DNA of 64,000 nucleotides, taken from the NCBI GenBank assembly GCA_003971905.1, contig RSEE01000090.1:62001-126000 (forward strand), given 5' to 3'. Below the pieces are notes generated by a model. The model worked only from the letters and a program-made list of their open reading frames with translations. It was not told the origin of the DNA and did no database searches. Positions within the stretch are counted from its first letter, which is position 1. Each line of letters starts with the position of its first letter. The DNA is from Moniliella sp. 'wahieum'. Taxonomy: Eukaryota. The position numbers were made by a program, and so were the translations under genes. Below are positions 41,332 to 56,692 of the stretch, piece after piece.

Positions 41332-42230
41332 GTATGTCCCACCTCCCACTTACCCCTCCTGTTCTCCTTCTCCCTCTTGTTACTTGTCCTCGTTCCCTGT
41401 TCACCGTCTCTGGTCTCGCTTGTTTGTTTGGTTAAGGTGGGCTAACCAGGATCTGACAGATGTCCCGCCTGTCCTTTGGTCCCTGTTGGGCATGCGCCCC
41501 AAGGCTGTGCTTACCCCCTTTTTCCGCCTTCCTTTCAGCCCGAAGCTCTTTTGTTTGTACCATGTACCCTTTTCTCCTTGCCTTGTGGCGGATGTGTCGC
41601 CCGGGCGGAGATACGACCCCGTGTGGATGGTGGACATGCCATGCGACCCTGTTGCAACGTTCCGCGTTACTACCCTACCTTGACATAGCTGAGTGCTGAC
41701 AGCTTCCAACTATGGACTGGCCTACCCATCCAACCAACCAGCCAATTACGCTGCCATACTCTGCGGCATACCATGCTAATGCGCGATCGGGCGTGGAGAG
41801 GCGCTGTAGAAACCAGGAGGTGAGGGCATGTGTAGCGCGTTGTGGTCTAACCCACTCTCAGATCTCATCGATCTCCTCAAGCCTCGTATTGAGGTTACAC
41901 GCCAAGGGCAGGAGGTGCACACCCTGCGGGGCACAGTGAAGGTCAGTTGGCGCCTGAGGCCTGGTGCCTCAGCGAGTGGATCGAGTTGCATCGTTCCCAC
42001 TCGTCCGGCACAGCGGGGGACGCTGCGGATGAGAGGGAAGGAGTTCTGTTGGAGATGGGGGGAAGGTCATACCACATGGACCAGAATTAGGTTGTGGGCT
42101 TCGATCGTTGTGGGAGATGCCAAGAGCAAGGAAGATGGGCGGCGGGCCATGTGGTCGACGAAGCGGGCATGCTGAGTTGGAAGCGGTGGGAATGAAAGGC
42201 AGGGCCTGGGGCGGGAACTGCCAAAAAAAG

Positions 42231-42319
42231 GGGGTCCGCCCGGGATCGAACCGAGGACCACCTCTACGAGTCTAATCAAGAAACCCTAAAGAGGCATGAT
42301 ACCACTACACCACGAACCC
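42231..42319 (-). tRNA. tRNA-Pro(AGG) with 17-nt intron
   Basis: GGGTTCG TGGTGTAGTGGTATCATG CCTCT TT AGG G [tttcttgattagactcg] T AGAGG TGGTC CTCGG TTCGATC CCGGG CGGACCC C. Mature length 72 nt, followed by a T7 Pol III terminator. Confidence 0.95.
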
Positions 42320-44642: not shown

Positions 44643-45371
44643 CCAATCAGGCCCTCTAAGTAGTGACCAACCGTGTACGTCTCCTCTGGTAAGTCTCCTG
44701 TTGCAGAAGGGCGAGAGCAATCAACCGACCATTTAGAGTACATAACCGACATGACCCCTCGCTAGTCCACCAAAGCAATCTGTTTGACAATAGAGACGGG
44801 CAAGCCACAACATGGGGGCCAAGCGACAGTAGCGTGTGGGCTGTACTACTTCGCCATGCCGCGAGCCCCAAAGAAGGAGCGAGGATTGGGGACAGGAGGC
44901 AAATCCCGCCCAGGGTGATGGGCTTGGCGTCGTAGAGTGGGTTAAGCTAAGCCAGGCGCGCTGTTGGAAGCGGCTGAGGCCACCATAGATATCTAGGCTA
45001 GTACGCAGCATCATAACCTCTTCCATCCACAAAAGGTTTGCAGTGGAAAATTTGCTGTAAAGTACCCGATTGAGTACCCCGAGACCGGTGAGCTGAGTGA
45101 TTGCCGGTGTGATATGCGATAGCCTGTGATCATGTGATGCATGTTTGCATCATGGTAGCCTCGGCCGAAAGGATATTTTGAGTACTTCCTGCTGCATGTT
45201 AAGTCCGCTGCTCGCTAGCACGCCATCCGACAGCCACCGGCCACCCCTCCTCGCCTCTCCGGACCCGATGGCCGTCGAGATGGGCAGGTTCAGAGTGCTG
45301 GAGGCATGGAGAGCTAGCCATCCTGTCCCCTATCTTGCGCGCCCACCACCCCCGCCTCTACCACTTGCACC

Positions 45372-47341
45372 ATGTCCCTTCCCTTGGCACGCGCGGTCCG
45401 CTTCCGCTGCGAGCCAGGTGTGCCCTCTCGCTGCTCCAGCGCGACTCGCCTCTGTGGGTCCCCCCAGCTCGCCCAGTACACCCCCATGACAGCCACATTG
45501 GCGGCCACCACTCCCCACGGCACAGCCCGCAGAGCAAGGTAGGCTTTACACCTGCGGTCTCCTCGCCTCTGGGCGTCTGTTCGGTGGGTACTTCCTCGCC
45601 GTCGTTCCCCTGTGTGAACGCCAATGCCGAACGGGAAGCGCGGCTGCGTTCCCAAGGTCTGCACTGTTTGCCTGCGCGTGTTGGTCCGGGGGACAGCGAC
45701 CCGATTCTAGGAGACAATGCGACGACCCAGACGCCCAACAAGGAACCCAGCTACACGTCCAACCATTCGGGGTACCAGACTTACCTCCATACCCAGCCGT
45801 ATCGACTGGACTATGGCGGCGTTCTGCCGCAGTTCCAACTTGCGTACGAGACGTGGGGGCAGCTGAATGAGGCGCGAGACAATGTGGTGCTTCTGCATAC
45901 AGGCTTAAGTGCCAGTTCGCATGCCGCTTCGTCCGAGGCCAATCCTTCGCGGGGCTGGTGGGAGGATTTTTTAGGCCCAGGCAAGGCGGTGGACACGACC
46001 AAGTACTTTGTCATTTGTACTAACGTCCTAGGTGGATGCTATGGAAGTACCGGACCCTCTTCGCCCTACCCTGCGCCAGCTGGCTCAACTGAATCCGGTG
46101 CCTGGGGCACGCGCTTCCCCATCCTCAGTCTGTTCGATATGGTGCGAGCCCAATTTCTCCTCCTCGACTCGTTGGGCATCAAGCAGGTGTACGCCAGTGT
46201 GGGCAGCAGCATGGGTGGGATGCAGAGTATTGCGGCGGCCCACTTGTTTCCTGAGCGGGTAGAACGAGTGGTGAGTATTAGTGGTTGTGCGCGTTCGGGA
46301 CCGGCGAGCGTGGCGCTTCGGTACGCGCAACGAAGTGTGCTTATGGCCGATCCCAATTGGCAACCGGCTTTTACTATGGTCCGGGTCAGATCCCCCCGCA
46401 CACGGGGATGAAGTTGGCGCGGCAAATCGCGACGATTACTTACCGCAGTGGGCCAGAGTGGGAGCAGCGATTTGGACGGCGTCGTCGAAGAGCAGCTACC
46501 CAAAGGGACGTGGCCGCACCCGCCCCTTTGCCTACCCACTCGACCACGCCAGCGACGATGCGGCGCGCTTGGCCGAGCAGGAGGCACCGTTTGAATCGGA
46601 CCGCGTTGTGCCCTGATTTCTTGATTGAGACCTACCTCGACCACCAGGGAGAATCGTTTTGCTTAAAGTACGATGCCAACTCGCTGATCTATGTGAGCAA
46701 GGCAATGGACTTGTTTGACATGAGCGATTATGCGCTGCGCGACCTCGATCGACGAAAAGAGATGCGGCGCAAAATCGAAGAGGGCATGCCATCGGAGCAA
46801 GCGGTAGCAGAGATGCAACGGCAAGCGCAGGAGGAAACGGGGAAGAAGAGCAAGAGCAGGACTTTGCTCTGTCTTCCTCCTCCCCCTCGCGCCACCGTCG
46901 TCAACACATCTCAACCCTCACCTCCCTGCTGCGCATGCGTATGTCCGGCCTTGGCCCGCGGCCTGGCCAACTTGCGCGCCACGCCAACGCTTGTCATTGG
47001 CGTCCAGTCCGACGTGCTCTTCCCCGTTGGCCAGCAACGTGAACTGGCCGAATGTCTCCGCATGATTGGCAACGACAGGGTGAGCTATTACGAGCTGGAC
47101 CCCCCTATGGCCACGATAGTTTCTGTATGTACCTCTTTCTCTCCAGTGGCCATCCCTTACGAGTTGAAACGGCACCTGTCTTGTTGCTCTGGCATGCTCG
47201 TATGCTGACCGTGGGTTTCCAGTCTCGACGTGGCTTCTGTTGGCACGACTGTGCGTGGTTTCTTGGGGTGAGTGCTGGCCGATCGCGCACCCCCGGCTAT
47301 CTGTATACGACCGCCTCTGGGACATTGGATCTACAGTGTAA
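45372..47341 (+). CDS. MetX-family acyltransferase, Cys2/serine O-succinyltransferase-like clade (ends approximate)
   Basis: [104 protein letters not shown]. Confidence 0.85.
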
Positions 47342-49237
47342 CATGCAATGGATAGTCGCCGGGGCGAAGCGACGGAGATGACTCAAGCTGAATACGTGAG
47401 TGGGGATGGGCGGAAAGCATCCCGACCGTAGAAGTATACCCCAGCCAGCCACCGTCCATAGCCGAGGAGGTGCGCGGAGCCCCGCAGCAGCCCAGCCCCC
47501 AATACTCAGTCCCCTCGGTTGCACCGATCCCAAGACACTGTCGATGCGTGCGCCCCAGCCCCCAACCAGCGACTGATTCGATTACCGTTACCAGTTACCC
47601 CAGTACTCAGCCCCCCACCGGCCCAGCCGCACTCCGGCTGCCGGGTCCTCCTTGCCGTCTCCTCCCGAAATACATCCCCTCTACTTCCCCGCGCTTCTCC
47701 CTGCTTTCCCTCGCCTCCCCCCTCCGTCCCCACTGGCATCTCCGCCGGCACCACAAGCATAAGCATGAGCACGAGCAACGCCCCCCGCGCAACAGGAGCC
47801 GCGCGCGCCGAGCAAGGTGCGCTGGTGTGGACCCCAAGCCGCTGGCCCAAACGGCACCGGGCGTCTACTCCACTACATCCAGCAGCACCATGGCATCCAT
47901 CTTTCGTCGTACGACGAGTTGTGGCGCTGGTCCGTGGCGCAGCCAGCTCTGTTCTGGGAATGTGTATGGGACCATGTGGGCATTTTGTCGTCGCGGCGCT
48001 GGGACAGTGCTGTGGCGGGAGCTGCGCGTGGCCTGGTCCAGCCTGGGGAGGGCATGACTGACCCGATCGATCCGCGTCCACCGCTCTTCCCCCGCCACGC
48101 TGGTTCAGCGGAAGCGAGCTGAACTTTGCTGAGAATTGCTGCGGTACTGCTCGCCCGGGCAGGCGGGGCGGGACAAGTTGGCGCTGGTATCTGCGAGCGA
48201 GGGCCGTGCTGGGCGACAAGGTGACCAGTGCTTTACCCGTGCCGAGTTGTGGGAGCAAGTGGGCAAAGTGAAGGACGCACTGGACGCAATGGGCGTCCGA
48301 CCGGGCGACCGAGTAGCAAGTTATGCCATCAACATTGCAAGTAACTTGATTGCCTTTCTTGCCGCCTCGGCGCTGGGTGCGATTTGGGTGTCGGCCGCTG
48401 CTGATTTGGCGCCCGACGCGTACTCGACCGTTTGGCCACCGTTCGTCCAAGGTCTTGTTTGCCGTCACGTCGGCGCCGTACGCAGGCAAGGTTCATGACC
48501 ACCTGGCCAAGGTGGACGATGTGGTCAGCCGCCTGGTGGCGCTCCCGCCTGTGCAGGAGGCCCAGCAAGGCCACGGCCTCGAGGACGTTCCGCCCGGCCT
48601 GTGCTGTTCGCCCCAAGACAAATTGCAAACGGTGGTGCTGATGGAAGATGTCGCAGTTCGGTGCCGCTTACTACGTTGGTCCAAGAGCGGGATGGGCGGG
48701 ACGGGGTGCAGTATGCGGGGTGGGACGCGCTTCTGAGCTCGAGTTCGTTTGACCAGCACCACCCGATCCAATTTACGCCTGTCGAGTTCAACTTTCCTTT
48801 GTGGATATTGTTTTCGAGTGGGACGACCGGGGTGCCCAAGGCGATCGTGCACCGGAGTGGAGGGATGCTGTTGCAAGCTGCCAAGGAACACTTGATCCAG
48901 GGCGACCTGAATGAGGACGATGTATTTTTCTACTACACCTCGGTGGGTTGGATGATGTGGAACTGGAGCATCAGCGCACTTCTTTCGGGGGCCACGGTGG
49001 TGCTGTACAATGGGGCACCGTTGTCGCCGGTGGGGGTGCTATGGGACTTGGTCAACCGATGGGGCGTAACTGTGTTTGGTACGTCGGCAGCGTACCTCTC
49101 CTTCCTTGCTGGGAGCGGGTACGTTCCGCGCAAAGTTTATCCCAACCTGAAAGTCCACACTGTCCTCTCCACCGCCAGCCCGCTCCGGGCCGACCTGTAC
49201 CCGTTTATCCAAGACGCGATTGGGGATGTGCTGATTG

Positions 49238-49397
49238 TGTTGACATCCGTCCTAGGACCGCGCGGACCCTGAGTCACGTGAGTCAGCTTTCATTCCTTCC
49301 GAGCTCGCACCAGTCTTCTGGACGAGTCAGTCGCAGAAGCTTCTTAGTCCAATACGACGTTCAGTGCTCACATTCTGTGGTAGTAGCGAGGCCGACA
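49238..49397 (+). repeat. 5' LTR (160 bp)
   Basis: tgttgacatcc...gaggccgaca, repeated at 54135. Confidence 0.97.
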
Positions 49398-49451
49398 GAG
49401 TTACATCCTTATCTGCTCATCCCTGAGCTGGCCAAAACTACACCCACAACC

Positions 49452-50699
49452 ATGGGCGCCAACGCTAACACCGATCTCTCGGTCAGCGACACCACAATGG
49501 TGAACAAGCGCGATTACTGGACACCAACCGGTCGCGATCCGCCACCGATTGGCACCGACAACGAGGAACTCATGATGCTTTGCGCCGAAGCGCACCTGTG
49601 GTTCAAGAAGACGAACGACATCGATGTCGTTAAAGAGAAGATCAACAGAGCTATACACGACAGAGCCGAGTGGCTTGGATGGAAGGACGAACCTACGTCT
49701 ATCACGACAAACTGGGTTCGACGGGCTACGAATTTTGTGGTGCAAAACATCCACCAAATGGAAACTCAACCCAACGCAACTTTGGGGGCACCTACAGGCG
49801 CAGCCTCGCGACCCGAGTACGACCTTTACAGATCACTACGCGAGTCTCCCACCAAGAATATCAAGTGGCCTGATCTGAACAAAGACCCGTCCGCCTACAG
49901 CGCTTGGGAAGACGAATTTCTCTTCGCGATAACAGATGCCCACCCCCACGCAAGCGACGTCGTCCAGAATGGTCGCAGCTCCCGCTACTTCACCGAGGAC
50001 CTCGACAGACGCTTGCACAACCTTCTTAGGGAAGCCATGCCGTCAACCCTCTTCCGGACGATCCGCACCCACCACGAAATATCATGCACCCAGGACACGC
50101 TGAACATGCTGCGTCAGCGGTATGGATATACGCCTACCGCAAACAGAGGGCCTCTACTCATTCGCTACTTTTCGGCCGACCAAGGAAACCGATCGGGTCG
50201 AGACTACCTCGACTACATGGAAGAGATCAGTGCAAGCCTGACGCGAGCGGGCATCCCACTTACGGAAGAGCAGGAACGCACTGGGATCCTACTCGGCTTA
50301 CGCGACATGAGCATTCGCCAGCGTGAAGAGCGCTCGAGTCTAGACAAGTTACGGCAGGCCGTGATGGACATACCAGCCGCCACGTATCCCGGTGGAGAAA
50401 GGAAGAGAAACGGAGGCAAGCCGGTCAACGGAGGAACGCCTTGGACTCGACCCGACAGCGGGGGACGACCCACCAGCGGGGGAAAAAACTCCAGCGGGGG
50501 CAAAGCCGGCGACGACAACCTCGCGGACACAAAGACCAAGGGGCAAGACCGCACCAACCAACCCTGGCGCAGCGCGACGTCTAATAAACCTGTTGTCCCT
50601 CCGCGCAACCCAGGCCGAGCCAACGCTCACGTCGCTCAGAGAGCGAGCTCTCCCGAGTCTGAAGTGATTGACGTTGATGCGGGCACAGCTGACTACTAG
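49452..50699 (+). CDS. gag: Copia Gag (415 aa from ATG 49452; no CCHC knuckle visible)
   Basis: Open frame between the PBS region and TAG 50697-50699. Capsid-like YSAWEDEF and YLDYMEEISASL..AG..LTEE segments, basic G/K-rich C-terminus. Confidence 0.85.
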   Translation: MGANANTDLSVSDTTMVNKRDYWTPTGRDPPPIGTDNEELMMLCAEAHLWFKKTNDIDVVKEKINRAIHDRAEWLGWKDEPTSITTNWVRRATNFVVQNIHQMETQPNATLGAPTGAASRPEYDLYRSLRESPTKNIKWPDLNKDPSAYSAWEDEFLFAITDAHPHASDVVQNGRSSRYFTEDLDRRLHNLLREAMPSTLFRTIRTHHEISCTQDTLNMLRQRYGYTPTANRGPLLIRYFSADQGNRSGRDYLDYMEEISASLTRAGIPLTEEQERTGILLGLRDMSIRQREERSSLDKLRQAVMDIPAATYPGGERKRNGGKPVNGGTPWTRPDSGGRPTSGGKNSSGGKAGDDNLADTKTKGQDRTNQPWRSATSNKPVVPPRNPGRANAHVAQRASSPESEVIDVDAGTADY

Positions 50700-53600
50700 G
50701 AACTCGGGGGCGAAATGCGAATCATCCGGGCATTATATGACAGTGGGGCATTCCCATCCATTTGGAAAGACAAATCCGTCTTCACATCCATGACCCCTTG
50801 CGACGACGAGATAGAGGTTGCTAACGGGACACATGTAAAGGCGGAAGGACGAGGCACGGCCACAATCCGTATCCGATGCTTAGGAGGACACCAAATGGAG
50901 ATAAAACTCCCCAACAGCCTATACATGCCCCGTTTCAGCCGAAATCTCGTCAGTGTAGCACACCTGTCGAACACCGGAATCGCATCATACTTCGCCCCAC
51001 ACCAGAAGGGTATCTGGCTTGGTAACCCAGGATCCACCCTACGAAAAGTAACCGGCAGTGACTATCAATTCACGATCTTACACAACCCGCGAACGCCACC
51101 CACACCCCTGCGGGCCATGGCGACCAAACCGATCAAACCGGCCGACCCACCCTCAACCCCAAACTCCCTCGCAGCATCCCTGGCCCTGGACCACGTCTCT
51201 AAAGCCCACAAACGCTGGAACCACGCAGCCATCGACCTCCTCCCCTGGCTTACACGATCGGAAACCGCAGGCCTCCGCGTCACAGCCAAGCATATCTCCC
51301 TCTGTCGTTCAGAGTGGGATTGCCCAACATGCGCGGTGGCACTAGCGACAGCATCGCCCCATCCGAGCCGGGACCGCCTCCGATCCAAAAGACCTTTCGA
51401 GGTCCTCCACGTCGACGTAGTAGACCTCCCCCGGGTAACCGGCATGGGGCACGGATACGCCCTCGTCGCCGTTGATGACTTCACGCGGTACGTCTTCACC
51501 ACAGCGATCCCGACAAAGGGCGCTGCAACGAAGGAACTGCGGAACCTCATATTGCGGGAGCAACGCTACGGCCCGGACAGACTGCTGCGGACTTTGCGCA
51601 CGGACAACGCCCCCGAATTGACAAGCGCACTGCAACCTTTTCTGGACGAGCAAGGCATCACGTCAGAACGGACAATCCCGGGGCAGAGTGCTAGCAACGG
51701 TGTGGCTGAGCGTGCCATCCGAACCATAACGACTCGTGCAAGGCAGTTGCTCTTGGGTACAGGTCTTCCGACGTCGGACTGGTGGGAACACAGCCTCCAC
51801 GCTGCGTGCTTCACCCAAAACCAAATGCCACTCAAAACATCCGGGGAAGACAACAAATCGCGATTTGAGCGATACAAAGGCCACGCATACTCGTTACCGA
51901 TGCAACCCTTTGGCCGCGTTGCATACCTCCATCTGCCCGAGTCACGCCGCGAGCACAAGCTCAGCGCGCGGGCAGAGGAAGGTATGCTGGTAGGATACCA
52001 CCATCAGCGCGGATCAAAGGGATGGCTCTTCGCCACATACCAACCATCCCTGGGTACCTTCACCTACCGCTGGTCGAAACCGTACAAATGGGGCAACGCC
52101 ATCCCCCATCTCCACCCCGACCACTTCCCACCCGACATCTCCAAATCACCTCAAATTAAAATCGACAGTGAAAAAGACGCTAACCCTACTCCGCCAGCCG
52201 CGGCAGCACCCATGCCCCGAACCGCCGCCACACCCCAGACACCCGCTCCCACCACCACCCCCCCTCCGCGCCGCTACCCCCTCCGCCAGCGCACCACCCG
52301 CACCTCCCTCGACCTGCACACACTCCCAATCGCTGACGACCCCACCGACACGACCTACCATGCTCGTGCTGCAGCCGCCACGCCCCACTGCGCCGCACCA
52401 GAGATCGGCATCGCCCGCCCCCTACCTGACACATCCGCCCCCCCGTTTGCCGACACAGTTCAACCTCCCGAATACGCCGCCATGACTGCTCTCAGCGCAC
52501 CCATCCACCCGGACACGGTTCAGCTCACCAAGGATGGCGTACCCCTCGCTCCCAAGACGCTCAAGGGTCTCGAGACTCACCCCTCCTTTGCCATGGTCAA
52601 GCAGGCTATGGCCGACGAGGTGGCCACACTCGCGCGATACGGCACCTACGAGGCTACGTACCCACCACCGGGTGCACAAATCCTCATAGGACTATGGCGC
52701 ATCACCACAAAGACGGACGCCGAGGGCCGGTTCCTGCGCCACCGCGCGCGCTTTGTCGCGGGCGGACACCAACAATCGGCCGAGACTTGGGGCCAGACGT
52801 TCGCACCATCGGTGCGCACACCTGCCATCCTGACCCTCGTCGTGCTGGCCGAGAAGTATAAGTTTGGCCTCTTCTCGGCGGACGTCAATGCAGCGTACCT
52901 GAACGCCCCCCTCGAAGAAGCAGTCTACATCCGCCCACCCCCCTACTTCCCCGAAGCGGGTGGTCGCGTGTGGCGTCTCAAGAAGAGTCTATACGGGCTA
53001 CATCAGAGCGGAGCAAACTGGGCACGATACATCCGGAACCTGCTGCGTGACAAGCTCGGCTTCACGCAAAGCTTGACCGAGCCCTGCTTGTTCGTGCGCG
53101 CTGCACCACCGGGTGAGCAGATCCTCCTGGCGGTCCACACCGACGATCTGCTCCTCGCATGCAAGTCACACCAAAAGTACGAGGAGTTTATGGCCGAGAT
53201 AAACACACACATTGATGTTCGTGGTAACGGTCCCCTTCACTACCACCTGGGATGCCAATACGATCGGATCGGTGGGGAGCTGTACCTGAGCCAACCAAAG
53301 TTCATCGAGGAAGTGGTGGCAAAGCACCACATCAAAGCCCCGTGGATCCGGACTCTCCCACATCCCGTACGGATGATACCGCCCCGTGCCGACCCTGAAC
53401 CCCCATCCCTCCCAGCCTTGCGCAAGGCATATCAGGGGAAGATCGGATCGGGACTGTGGGCTGCACGAATGGGCCGGCCTGACTCCCTCTTCGCTATCAC
53501 GGCCCTCAGCAGAGCCGCTGCCGACCCATCGCAGCAGCATCATCAAGCAGTCGATGACTTCCTTCGCTACCTGTACCATACTCGAGGAAAGGGCCTGAGG

Positions 53601-54140
53601 TTGACCCCAACATCAGATGCACCGGCCATTGCGCTGTATACAGATTCCGACTTGGCGGGAGATCCCATCCAGGCACGCTCCACATCTGGATGCCTACTGA
53701 TGGTGTACGGTGTGCCGGTGTCGTGGCGATCCATTCTTCAGCCGAAGAGCGTTACCAGTACCGCCGCCGCCGAATATACGGCAGGATATGATGGACTGGT
53801 TGACGCCAACTATGTCAAGAACATCATGATCGAGCTTGGGGCCATCGGCGAGGGTACACCCATTCATTGGTATTGCGACAATAAGTCTGTCGTCGATCTC
53901 GCCCACAAATTTGGCAGCACCGGCAAGCTCCGAGAGCTGAAGATCCGGTACCACAATGTACGGCAACACGTGGACTCGGGCGAGGCCATACTTGTACACA
54001 TCCCCGGCGAAAGGAACCCAGCGGACGTCCTCACCAAGCCTCTCGGCCGTCCCGCCCTGACAAGCCATCTTGCTCAACTCCGCGTCGAGGAGATGGATCC
54101 AGTCCACATGACTGGGCCCTCCGGTCAGCGGGGGTGTTGA
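50700..54140 (+). CDS. pol: Copia Pol (protease, integrase, reverse transcriptase, RNase H), same frame as gag
   Basis: YDSGA; HKRWNH...CPTC; LHVD, RTDNAPE, NGVAER; ADVNAAYLNA, LKKSLYGLHQSG, HTDD; YTDSD, AEY, CDN, NPADVLTKPL. The stop TGA lies inside the 3' LTR. Confidence 0.97.
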   Translation, partial: ELGGEMRIIRALYDSGAFPSIWKDKSVFTSMTPCDDEIEVANGTHVKAEGRGTATIRIRCLGGHQMEIKLPNSLYMPRFSRNLVSVAHLSNTGIASYFAPHQKGIWLGNPGSTLRKVTGSDYQFTILHNPRTPPTPLRAMATKPIKPADPPSTPNSLAASLALDHVSKAHKRWNHAAIDLLPWLTRSETAGLRVTAKHISLCRSEWDCPTCAVALATASPHPSRDRLRSKRPFEVLHVDVVDLPRVTGMGHGYALVAVDDFTRYVFTTAIPTKGAATKELRNLILREQRYGPDRLLRTLRTDNAPELTSALQPFLDEQGITSERTIPGQSASNGVAERAIRTITTRARQLLLGTGLPTSDWWEHSLHAACFTQNQMPLKTSGEDNKSRFERYKGHAYSLPMQPFGRVAYLHLPESRREHKLSARAEEGMLVGYHHQRGSKGWLFATYQPSLGTFTYRWSKPYKWGNAIPHLHPDHFPPDISKSPQIKIDSEKDANPTPPAAAAPMPRTAATPQTPAPTTTPPPRRYPLRQRTTRTSLDLHTLPIADDPTDTTYHARAAAATPHCAAPEIGIARPLPDTSAPPFADTVQPPEYAAMTALSAPIHPDTVQLTKDGVPLAPKTLKGLETHPSFAMVKQAMADEVATLARYGTYEATYPPPGAQILIGLWRITTKTDAEGRFLRHRARFVAGGHQQSAETWGQTFAPSVRTPAILTLVVLAEKYKFGLFSADVNAAYLNAPLEEAVYIRPPPYFPEAGGRVWRLKKSLYGLHQSGANWARYIRNLLRDKLGFTQSLTEPCLFVRAAPPGEQILLAVHTDDLLLACKSHQKYEEFMAEINTHIDVRGNGPLHYHLGCQYDRIGGELYLSQPKFIEEVVAKHHIKAPWIRTLPHPVRMIPPRADPEPPSLPALRKAYQGKIGSGLWAARMGRPDSLFAITALSRAAADPSQQHHQAVDDFLRYLYHTRGKGLRLTPTSDAPAIALYTDSDLAGDPIQARSTSGCLLMVYGVPVSWRSILQPKSVTSTAAAEYTAGYDGLVDANYVKNIMIELGAIGEGTPIHWYCDNKSVVDLAHKFGSTGKLRELKIRYHNVRQHVDSGEAILVHIPGERNPADVLTKPLGRPALTSHLAQLRVEEMDPVHMTGPSGQRGC

Positions 54141-54297
54141 CATCCGTCCTAGGACCGCGCGGACCCTGAGTCACGTGAGTCAGCTTTCATTCCTTCCGAG
54201 CTCGCACCAGTCTTCTGGACGAGTCAGTCGCAGAAGCTTCTTAGTCCAATACGACGTTCAGTGCTCACATTCTGTGGTAGTAGCGACGAGGCCGACA
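54135..54297 (+). repeat. 3' LTR (163 bp)
   Basis: Identical by eye to the 5' LTR except a 3-bp duplication (agcgaCGAggcc). Confidence 0.97.
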
Positions 54298-55149
54298 GAT
54301 TGGTTCGATTTCCGGTGGGACGGACCTGTGTGGGGCGTTGGGCGGGCACTGTACGGCGCTGCCAGTGTACGCGGGGGAAGTGCAGTGCCGCGCATTGGGC
54401 ATGCACGTCGAAGTGGACGATGGAGCGGGAGGGAGCTTGCCGCCGGAGACCGAGGGCGACTTGGTTTGTCGTACCTTCTTTCCCTCGCAGCCGCTGGGAT
54501 TTTGGAACCAGCCATGGCAACGGTACTTTGATGCGTACTATGCTCAGACGCCCGGCAGCTGGCACCACGGCGACTTTATCTTGCTTACGTGCCATGGGGG
54601 CTTGGTCATGCGGGGCCGGTCGGATGGCGTGTTGAATCCGAGCGGGATCCGGTTTGGATCGTCGGACTTGTACGAGGTGATCGAGGCGGTACAGGGTTGG
54701 TAGCGGCGATCCAGGATTCGGTGGCGGTGGAGTAACGTGTGCCAGCGGCGGACGATGAGGTGGTGTGTGTTGGTGGAGGTGGATGGGGCGGTGGTGAAGG
54801 ACGAAGCGACATGGCGCAAGTTGGTGCACGAAGTGAAAGAGTTGATTCGAGCGCGGCGCAGTGCGCGCCACGTGCCCCGGTTCGTTGTGCGCCTGAGCGA
54901 GGGCGGGGTGTGCAAGACGTTGAATGGCAAGAAGATCGAGGTGCCAATCAAGAAGATCCTTAATGGCCAGCCAATCAGCATTGTTAGTCCAGCGACGCTG
55001 CAGAACCCAGAAGCGCTGCCGCAGTATGCTGTCATTGCCCAGCGCTTGCAGCATGCGCTGCGGGCAAAGGCACACCTGAAAAGGGCAAGGAAGAAATGCG
55101 ACTAGGAGCACGTATCAAGATTGTGAAGAGGGATACATGTAGGAGGGAT

Positions 55150-56607: not shown

Positions 56608-56692
56608 GGGGTCCGCCCGGGATCGAACCGAGGACCACCTCTACGAGTTGGAGAAACCCTAAAGAGGCATGATACCACTACACCACGAACCC
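56608..56692 (-). tRNA. tRNA-Pro(AGG) with 13-nt intron
   Basis: Exons identical to the copy at 42231-42319; intron tttctccaactcg; T5 run a few nt downstream. Confidence 0.95.

Follow-up and report, generated by a model that had tools for sequence, protein, structure and literature searches.

An inherited in-frame UAG codon between gag and pol in a clade of Ty1/copia elements of a basidiomycete, and its repeated loss in one family

A Ty1/copia element of Moniliella sp. 'wahieum' carries gag and pol in a single frame split by one TAG codon, and this stop is inherited throughout a deeply diverged copia clade in the same genome. As judged from the alignments, the bases 3' of the stop are conserved beyond what the protein needs, and low-level ribosomal readthrough of the UAG is probably the way in which pol is expressed. 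The stop was lost three independent times in one family, only in copies that also lack an N-terminal module of Gag, a pattern that has to be read with the caveat that three events are few.

The element lies in a window of 64,000 nucleotides (contig RSEE01000090.1, positions 62,001 to 126,000), the whole stretch of DNA that was analysed, and its features are all on the forward strand of the window. Its family is called A here, and the further families, lettered B, C, D, E and F, were found by searching the genome with pol proteins. The LTRs are of the TG...CA type, 160 nt long at the 5' end (49238-49397) and 163 nt at the 3' end (54135-54297), 100% identical over 153 nt gap-free and with a spacing of 4897, and they are flanked by a GATTG target-site duplication (49233-49237 and 54298-54302). 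The gag frame has 415 codons counted from the first ATG (49452-50696), without a Pfam match, and its product is 16-26% identical to sister-family Gags in the alignment. The pol frame (50700-54140, 1,146 codons) encodes protease, with its DSG at 50739-50747, integrase, an SH3 domain, reverse transcriptase and a putative RNase H-like end assigned from position and motifs; the Pfam domains above cut-off were, in this order, PF22936, PF00665, PF25597 and PF07727, and the protease region matched no solved structure. A polypurine tract-like run, AGCGGGGG (54127-54134), stands immediately 5' of the 3' LTR, and the TGA of pol sits within this LTR (54135-54140), into which the family B pol frame extends further. 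The LTR termini and the target-site duplication, the PR-IN-RT order and a copia-type reverse transcriptase thus assign the element to Ty1/copia. A first sequence-only reading had described it as a young copia element of a basidiomycete, and both parts of this description are supported, the former by the identical LTRs, the duplication and the domain order, and the latter by a neighbouring host gene whose best named matches come from Ustilaginomycotina (70-76% identity).

Directly after the 5' LTR there is a putative primer-binding site, GAGTTACA (49398-49405), and GAGYTACA is found at this place in all five aligned families although their LTRs are unrelated. The search for a primer found no matching tRNA in a tRNA set that is incomplete. 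This non-canonical site (window 49398-49408; also in L034, L039, L052 and L062) has a complement that resembles tRNA positions ~6-13 or the anticodon arm. The insertion lies within a host gene for an AMP-binding enzyme (48499-49237 and 54298-55105 of the window), whose reading, DVLI/GSISGG, continues across the GATTG duplication; by its motifs, we take this gene to be acetoacetyl-CoA synthetase-like. Further upstream, 45203-47400 holds a gene resembling homoserine O-acetyltransferase, broken up by frame changes of the kind typical of this assembly and with a putative 98-nt intron at 47126-47223. A near-identical pair of intron-bearing tRNA genes (42230-42319 and 56608-56692, minus strand) was called Lys by ARAGORN, a call that is doubtful because the pre-intron bases match the AGC/AGT anticodon position in the alignment. 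About 40 equal-scoring tRNA genes, an unusually large set, are spread over many contigs, and the three that were typed are tRNA-Ala(AGC).

The junction reads GAC TAC TAG GAA CTC GGG GGC GAA ATG CGA, with the TAG at 50697-50699. Translation of 49452-54140, with X at the TAG, gave 1,563 codons in which the only stops are that TAG and the final TGA, bearing out the earlier statement that gag and pol share one frame with the TAG as sole interruption; the distance of 12 codons given then between TAG and DSG has to be corrected, since 13 codons precede the D (50739). Exact matches to the junction were searched genome-wide with 0-6 free bases allowed, and all 56 carried TAG (56/56; none in a reversed-pattern control). 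The protease pattern found 58 family A copies, and the two beyond those 56 also have TAG, in such a way that the alignment of copies proposed in the sequence-only reading finds a sense codon in 0/58 and the stop is inherited rather than private. When 29 other family A copies were compared with the window copy over ~3.26 kb, each differed by 0-2 substitutions and had its own small indels, so that the copies look separately assembled, although in this comparison of assembled sequence polishing toward a common sequence may have acted on them. These private indels mark an error-prone assembly, yet the TAG codon is constant.

The sister families behave in the same way. TAG was kept in 20/20 copies of family B, 2/2 of family E and, at the aligned place, 17/17 of the D/F group, several of which carry 1-2-nt indels ahead of DSG. 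Compared with family A, identity is 19-26% for the Gags of B, C, E and F and 39-58% for the N-terminal part of pol, and the codon preceding the stop differs among families (TAC, AAA, TTC, GAA, GAC). Excluded from these counts were L072 and L073, which are decayed and show no TAG where the others align, L081, whose TAG precedes that place by one codon, L070 (no protease match), L082 (junction past the contig end), L221, L223 and L226 (unrelated matches), and L075, a single distant copy whose TAG-G is out of frame with DSG by one base. This lone copia copy, 30% identical, shows GAA TAG GAT 68 nt upstream of DSG (L075:4469-4540, minus strand). Copia proteins in the databases are more distant and mostly have gag and pol domains on one chain; one database protein, from elsewhere, corresponds to family B pol, and its first Met lies downstream of the protease. 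Relatives in metagenomes (80 loci) are all 21-39% identical, and a search of viral contigs for outside relatives found none.

Conservation at the junction is on the 3' side. The bases after the family A stop, GAACTCGGGGGC (50700-50711), follow a clade pattern TAG-G-R-N-N-N-C-G-S-G from which old copies depart, and in the alignment TAGGAACTCG is invariant among A, E and B. G follows UAG in all A, B and E copies, in the TAG-bearing C copies and in 16/17 of the D/F group. Where two families share a residue, the codons used are identical by eye in 3/3 cases right after the stop versus 5/14 further on for A and E, in 3/3 versus 2/10 for A and B, and in 8/9 within the first 42 nt versus 4/13 beyond for C and F, the last contrast giving a hand-computed Fisher p of about 0.01 with a window picked post hoc. 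This excess of identical codons right after the stop argues that selection acts on nucleotides 3' of it. The clade motif by itself is not rare, with 1 match in the window versus 0.31 expected. UAG-G is described as a Type III readthrough context (PMC3159437), and the hexamers listed as Type III in the text of PMC13517186 are UAGGGV, UAGGUA or UAGGAU; D and some F-group copies match this list (UAGGGA or UAGGAU), and UAGGAA (A, B, E) and UAGGAC (C, F) do not appear in it.

RNA structure contributes much less. Folding downstream of the family A stop was unremarkable against shuffles in 5/5 windows (z -0.67 to +1.34), and no significant fold was found in any of 12 junction windows (0/12). A stimulatory structure had been suggested from two complementary pairs, CTCGG/CCGGG and AATGC/GCATT. 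Both helices need G50730 and leave no room for loop 3, and because of this they cannot form together as a pseudoknot; the second, in addition, is missing in families B and E. The first, a weak 6-bp hairpin (50703-50708 pairing with 50725-50730), is kept in A and E through one-sided changes and has 3/6 pairs broken in B. In the C/D/F group, a possible GC stem of 7-10 bp starts 4 nt past the stop; its 10-bp form is 87% paired, with covariation not above that of shuffles (239/500). The stretch reported to lie in the ribosome channel covers about 11-12 nt downstream of the A site (PMC13517186), in such a way that the start of this stem falls inside it, and the linear motif is for this reason a better candidate signal than the hairpin. 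An upstream partner of the 3' motif, present in A and, by eye, in E, was considered and discarded, as the pairing would be opened by a ribosome that has reached the stop.

A candidate Gag/protease cleavage site, RANAH-VA (50616-50636), lies 22 codons upstream of the stop, its role being one that we carry over from Ty1. In the gag alignment, RAHIA, RANVA and AHAV of families B, E and C resemble it. With such a site upstream, the stop would fall within the protease, as described for Ty1, whose protease is encoded across the gag-pol junction (PMC10002725).

Constraint 3' of the stop, the UAG-G context, the lack of a conserved start and this upstream motif together make low-level readthrough of the UAG the best fit, and we consider it probable. 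Ribosomes that stop at the UAG would make Gag and a low rate of readthrough would make Gag-Pol. Most of the signal would reside in the first 12 nt, as the linear 3' context UAG-G-R...C-G-S-G, perhaps with help from a distant partner or a GC-rich hairpin, and the protease would cut itself free upstream of the stop. A translational bypass is what we infer, and likewise its rate, the inserted residue and the cleavage site. Several observations count against readthrough: the lack of a significant fold, the position of UAGGAA and UAGGAC outside the published list, the spread of 18 young copies that have no stop, and the case of Tca2, whose junction gave background readthrough only (0.3%) in S. cerevisiae according to PMC2194720. 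Moreover, a strict TAG followed by G would be equally expected of a splice acceptor or of an editing site.

Splicing is unlikely but has concrete signals to offer. The TAG itself would be a 3' acceptor (YAG/G), with a minor splice from an upstream in-frame donor joining gag to pol, in accordance with a stop that is always TAG and nearly always followed by G. In family A (50664-50693), an in-frame GTGATT (50664) lies 36 nt upstream and a branch-like CTGAC (50689) 7 nt before the end, defining a 36-nt intron that would end at the TAG; CTGAC is also present in B, a perfect in-frame GTGAGT is found 48 nt upstream in D, and the putative host intron at 47126-47223 has GCTGAC as a branch-like site. 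However, neither donor nor branch motif is conserved among families, a CAG 9 nt upstream in F-group copies would compete, and conservation is 3' rather than 5' of the TAG. The host intron, a single example, is 98 nt long and has its branch A 14 nt from its end, and GT-AG splicing does not account for the deletion that removes the stop in family C.

There is a small chance that the stop is passed by some other non-canonical bypass that depends on a host factor or on cis elements at a distance, as was proposed for Tca2 (PMC2194720); that precedent and the absence of strong local structure speak for it, and the clear local 3' conservation at this junction speaks against it. Expression of pol apart from Gag, from its own RNA or start (an internal promoter, reinitiation or a non-AUG codon), is improbable. 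The sequence-only reading had offered reinitiation at the ATG at 50715 as an alternative, and family A does have this codon; likewise, a weak promoter is described at the Tca2 junction (PMC2194720). However, none of B, C, D, E or F has an ATG in the interval from the stop to DSG, so that reinitiation there falls away and, on the aligned sequences, no pol start codon is conserved across families. The family B database protein begins at a Met downstream of the protease, and a separate start would leave the one-frame arrangement of gag and pol across families without a reason. A-to-I editing, by which UAG would become UIG (Trp) in a fraction of the RNAs, is very improbable. The preferences described for fungal editing (U at -1, A/G at +1 and +3, correction of UAG stops; PMC11156358) fit TAG-G-R, but the same source describes the process for the sexual stage of filamentous ascomycetes, whereas this host is Ustilaginomycotina-like, and the family A adenosine folds into a stem and not into the preferred loop. 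That the stop is an assembly error, a mark of dead copies or a sense codon in this host is scarcely tenable: many small indels are indeed present in the assembly (in a comparison of assembled copies), but five families share this codon at the corresponding position, no further in-frame TAG occurs in 1,562 codons of A, 1,202 + 460 of B, or 1,504 and 529 of C, and a tRNA with a CUA anticodon was absent among the 10 loci typed (63 of 2,133 tRNA candidates scored).

Family C is where the stop is lost. All 29 copies found by pattern could be read at the junction: six have TAG, 18 an 81-nt in-frame deletion that removes it (one of them with an additional missing base), three TCG and two AGG. A full gag with its ATG was found in four copies, and TAG is present in 4/4 of them. 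At the 5' end, each of the 18 deletion copies is missing about 239 nt, ATG included. The three TCG copies have 5' deletions of a different kind that likewise remove the ATG, and the two AGG copies (L085, L086) form a diverged subfamily; they are ~3 kb long with a diverged gag, lack the module and end after integrase, without reverse transcriptase. The N-terminal module of Gag is therefore missing in 23/23 stop-less copies, and the stop is missing in 0/4 full-Gag copies. The other two TAG copies (L088, L102) carry the same 5' gag deletion as the 18 and retain the stop; their LTR spacing is ~50 nt below what this deletion explains, making a further deletion likely, and these intermediates could be recombinants. 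Part of the lost module (residues 48-108) can be aligned to the beginning of the family F Gag.

The deletion copies have near-identical LTRs, and all 8 aligned 5' flanks are different. In one of them the frame stays open for 1,504 codons, through pol, and the frame breaks in others fall at G/C runs and vary by copy. The 81-nt deletion ends within an imperfect direct repeat instead of at GT-AG borders. We suggest that the stop-less copies would have spread by borrowing Gag from stop-bearing ones, on the grounds that a fused single ORF of Tj1 was inactive: removal of its gag stop abolished transposition (PMC4600332). This requirement fits the TAG found in every full-Gag copy of family C. On the other side, the Gags of A, B and E (~410-435 residues) have no obvious counterpart of the module, from which it follows that a C Gag shortened in this way may remain functional and that the stop-less form could be autonomous.

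The layout gag-stop-pol is already known from Tca2, VdLTRE5 and the fission-yeast gypsy elements including Tj1. Tca2 of Candida albicans is also Ty1/copia, with gag and pol in frame, one stop and a bypass that is unproven (PMC2194720), and in the elements studied here the two genes likewise share a frame split by one inherited stop. Its description differs in having UGA, an 8-nt purine spacer and a predicted pseudoknot, whereas here the stop is UAG-G, neither this spacer nor a pseudoknot was found at the junction, the host is a basidiomycete and many diverged families are involved; the likeness is one of layout, Tca2 having been compared by description. VdLTRE5 of Verticillium dahliae is likewise a copia element from a fungus, without CARYYA and with an in-frame stop, a feature called very rare; it has UGA instead of UAG-G and 2 copies, with no conserved context reported in the available text of PMC3441728. 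The fission-yeast elements Tj1, Tosmo1-3 and Tcry1 share with ours a clade-wide stop context and a pol without AUG (PMC4600332; bioRxiv 10.1101/2022.12.06.519325), and in Tj1 the stop is required for mobility (PMC4600332). They are Ty3/gypsy chromoviruses with the context GAA-TGA-CT, and the available parts of these two sources describe no naturally amplified stop-less derivatives. Gammaretroviruses (MoMLV) and Type III sites likewise have UAG-G at the gag-protease junction (PMC3159437, PMC13517186, PMC4917968), but here there is no H-type pseudoknot at +9 and the hexamer UAGGAA lies outside the Type III list (PMC3159437, PMC13517186). Drosophila copia and Ty1 share the PR-IN-RT order and the need for excess Gag, reached by splicing of a single ORF or by a +1 frameshift instead (PMC2194720, PMC10002725). 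The main text of the open-access papers searched contained no smut-fungus case, no stop-less derivative, no clade-wide UAG-G signal and no repeated stop loss. Against this literature, three things are new: how often the stop occurs genome-wide, the 3' motif that the families share, and the fact that loss of the stop has recurred together with a shortened Gag.

A bolder reading, put forward tentatively, is that the clade has a UAG-G readthrough signal of its own, made of the linear motif and a short hairpin, and that the stop would be needed only for full Gag, in such a way that shortened-Gag derivatives repeatedly shed it. One stop-less, Gag-Pol-only form would then have become a parasite dependent on helper copies, with 18 copies against 4 of its full-length parent, possibly because its RNA, free of a premature stop, escapes nonsense-mediated decay. 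Readthrough in MoMLV has been tied to escape from this decay (PMC4917968), and on that link losing the stop could pay. Alternatively, family C may have been caught midway in a return from readthrough to single-ORF expression.

How a copia element passes an in-frame gag stop has been an open question since Tca2, whose junction failed reporter tests. Five diverged natural versions of one junction in one genome pin down the conserved bases for mutagenesis, and the natural stop-less alleles, together with the intermediates, offer a comparison for the role of the stop in Gag:Pol balance, in RNA stability or in both.
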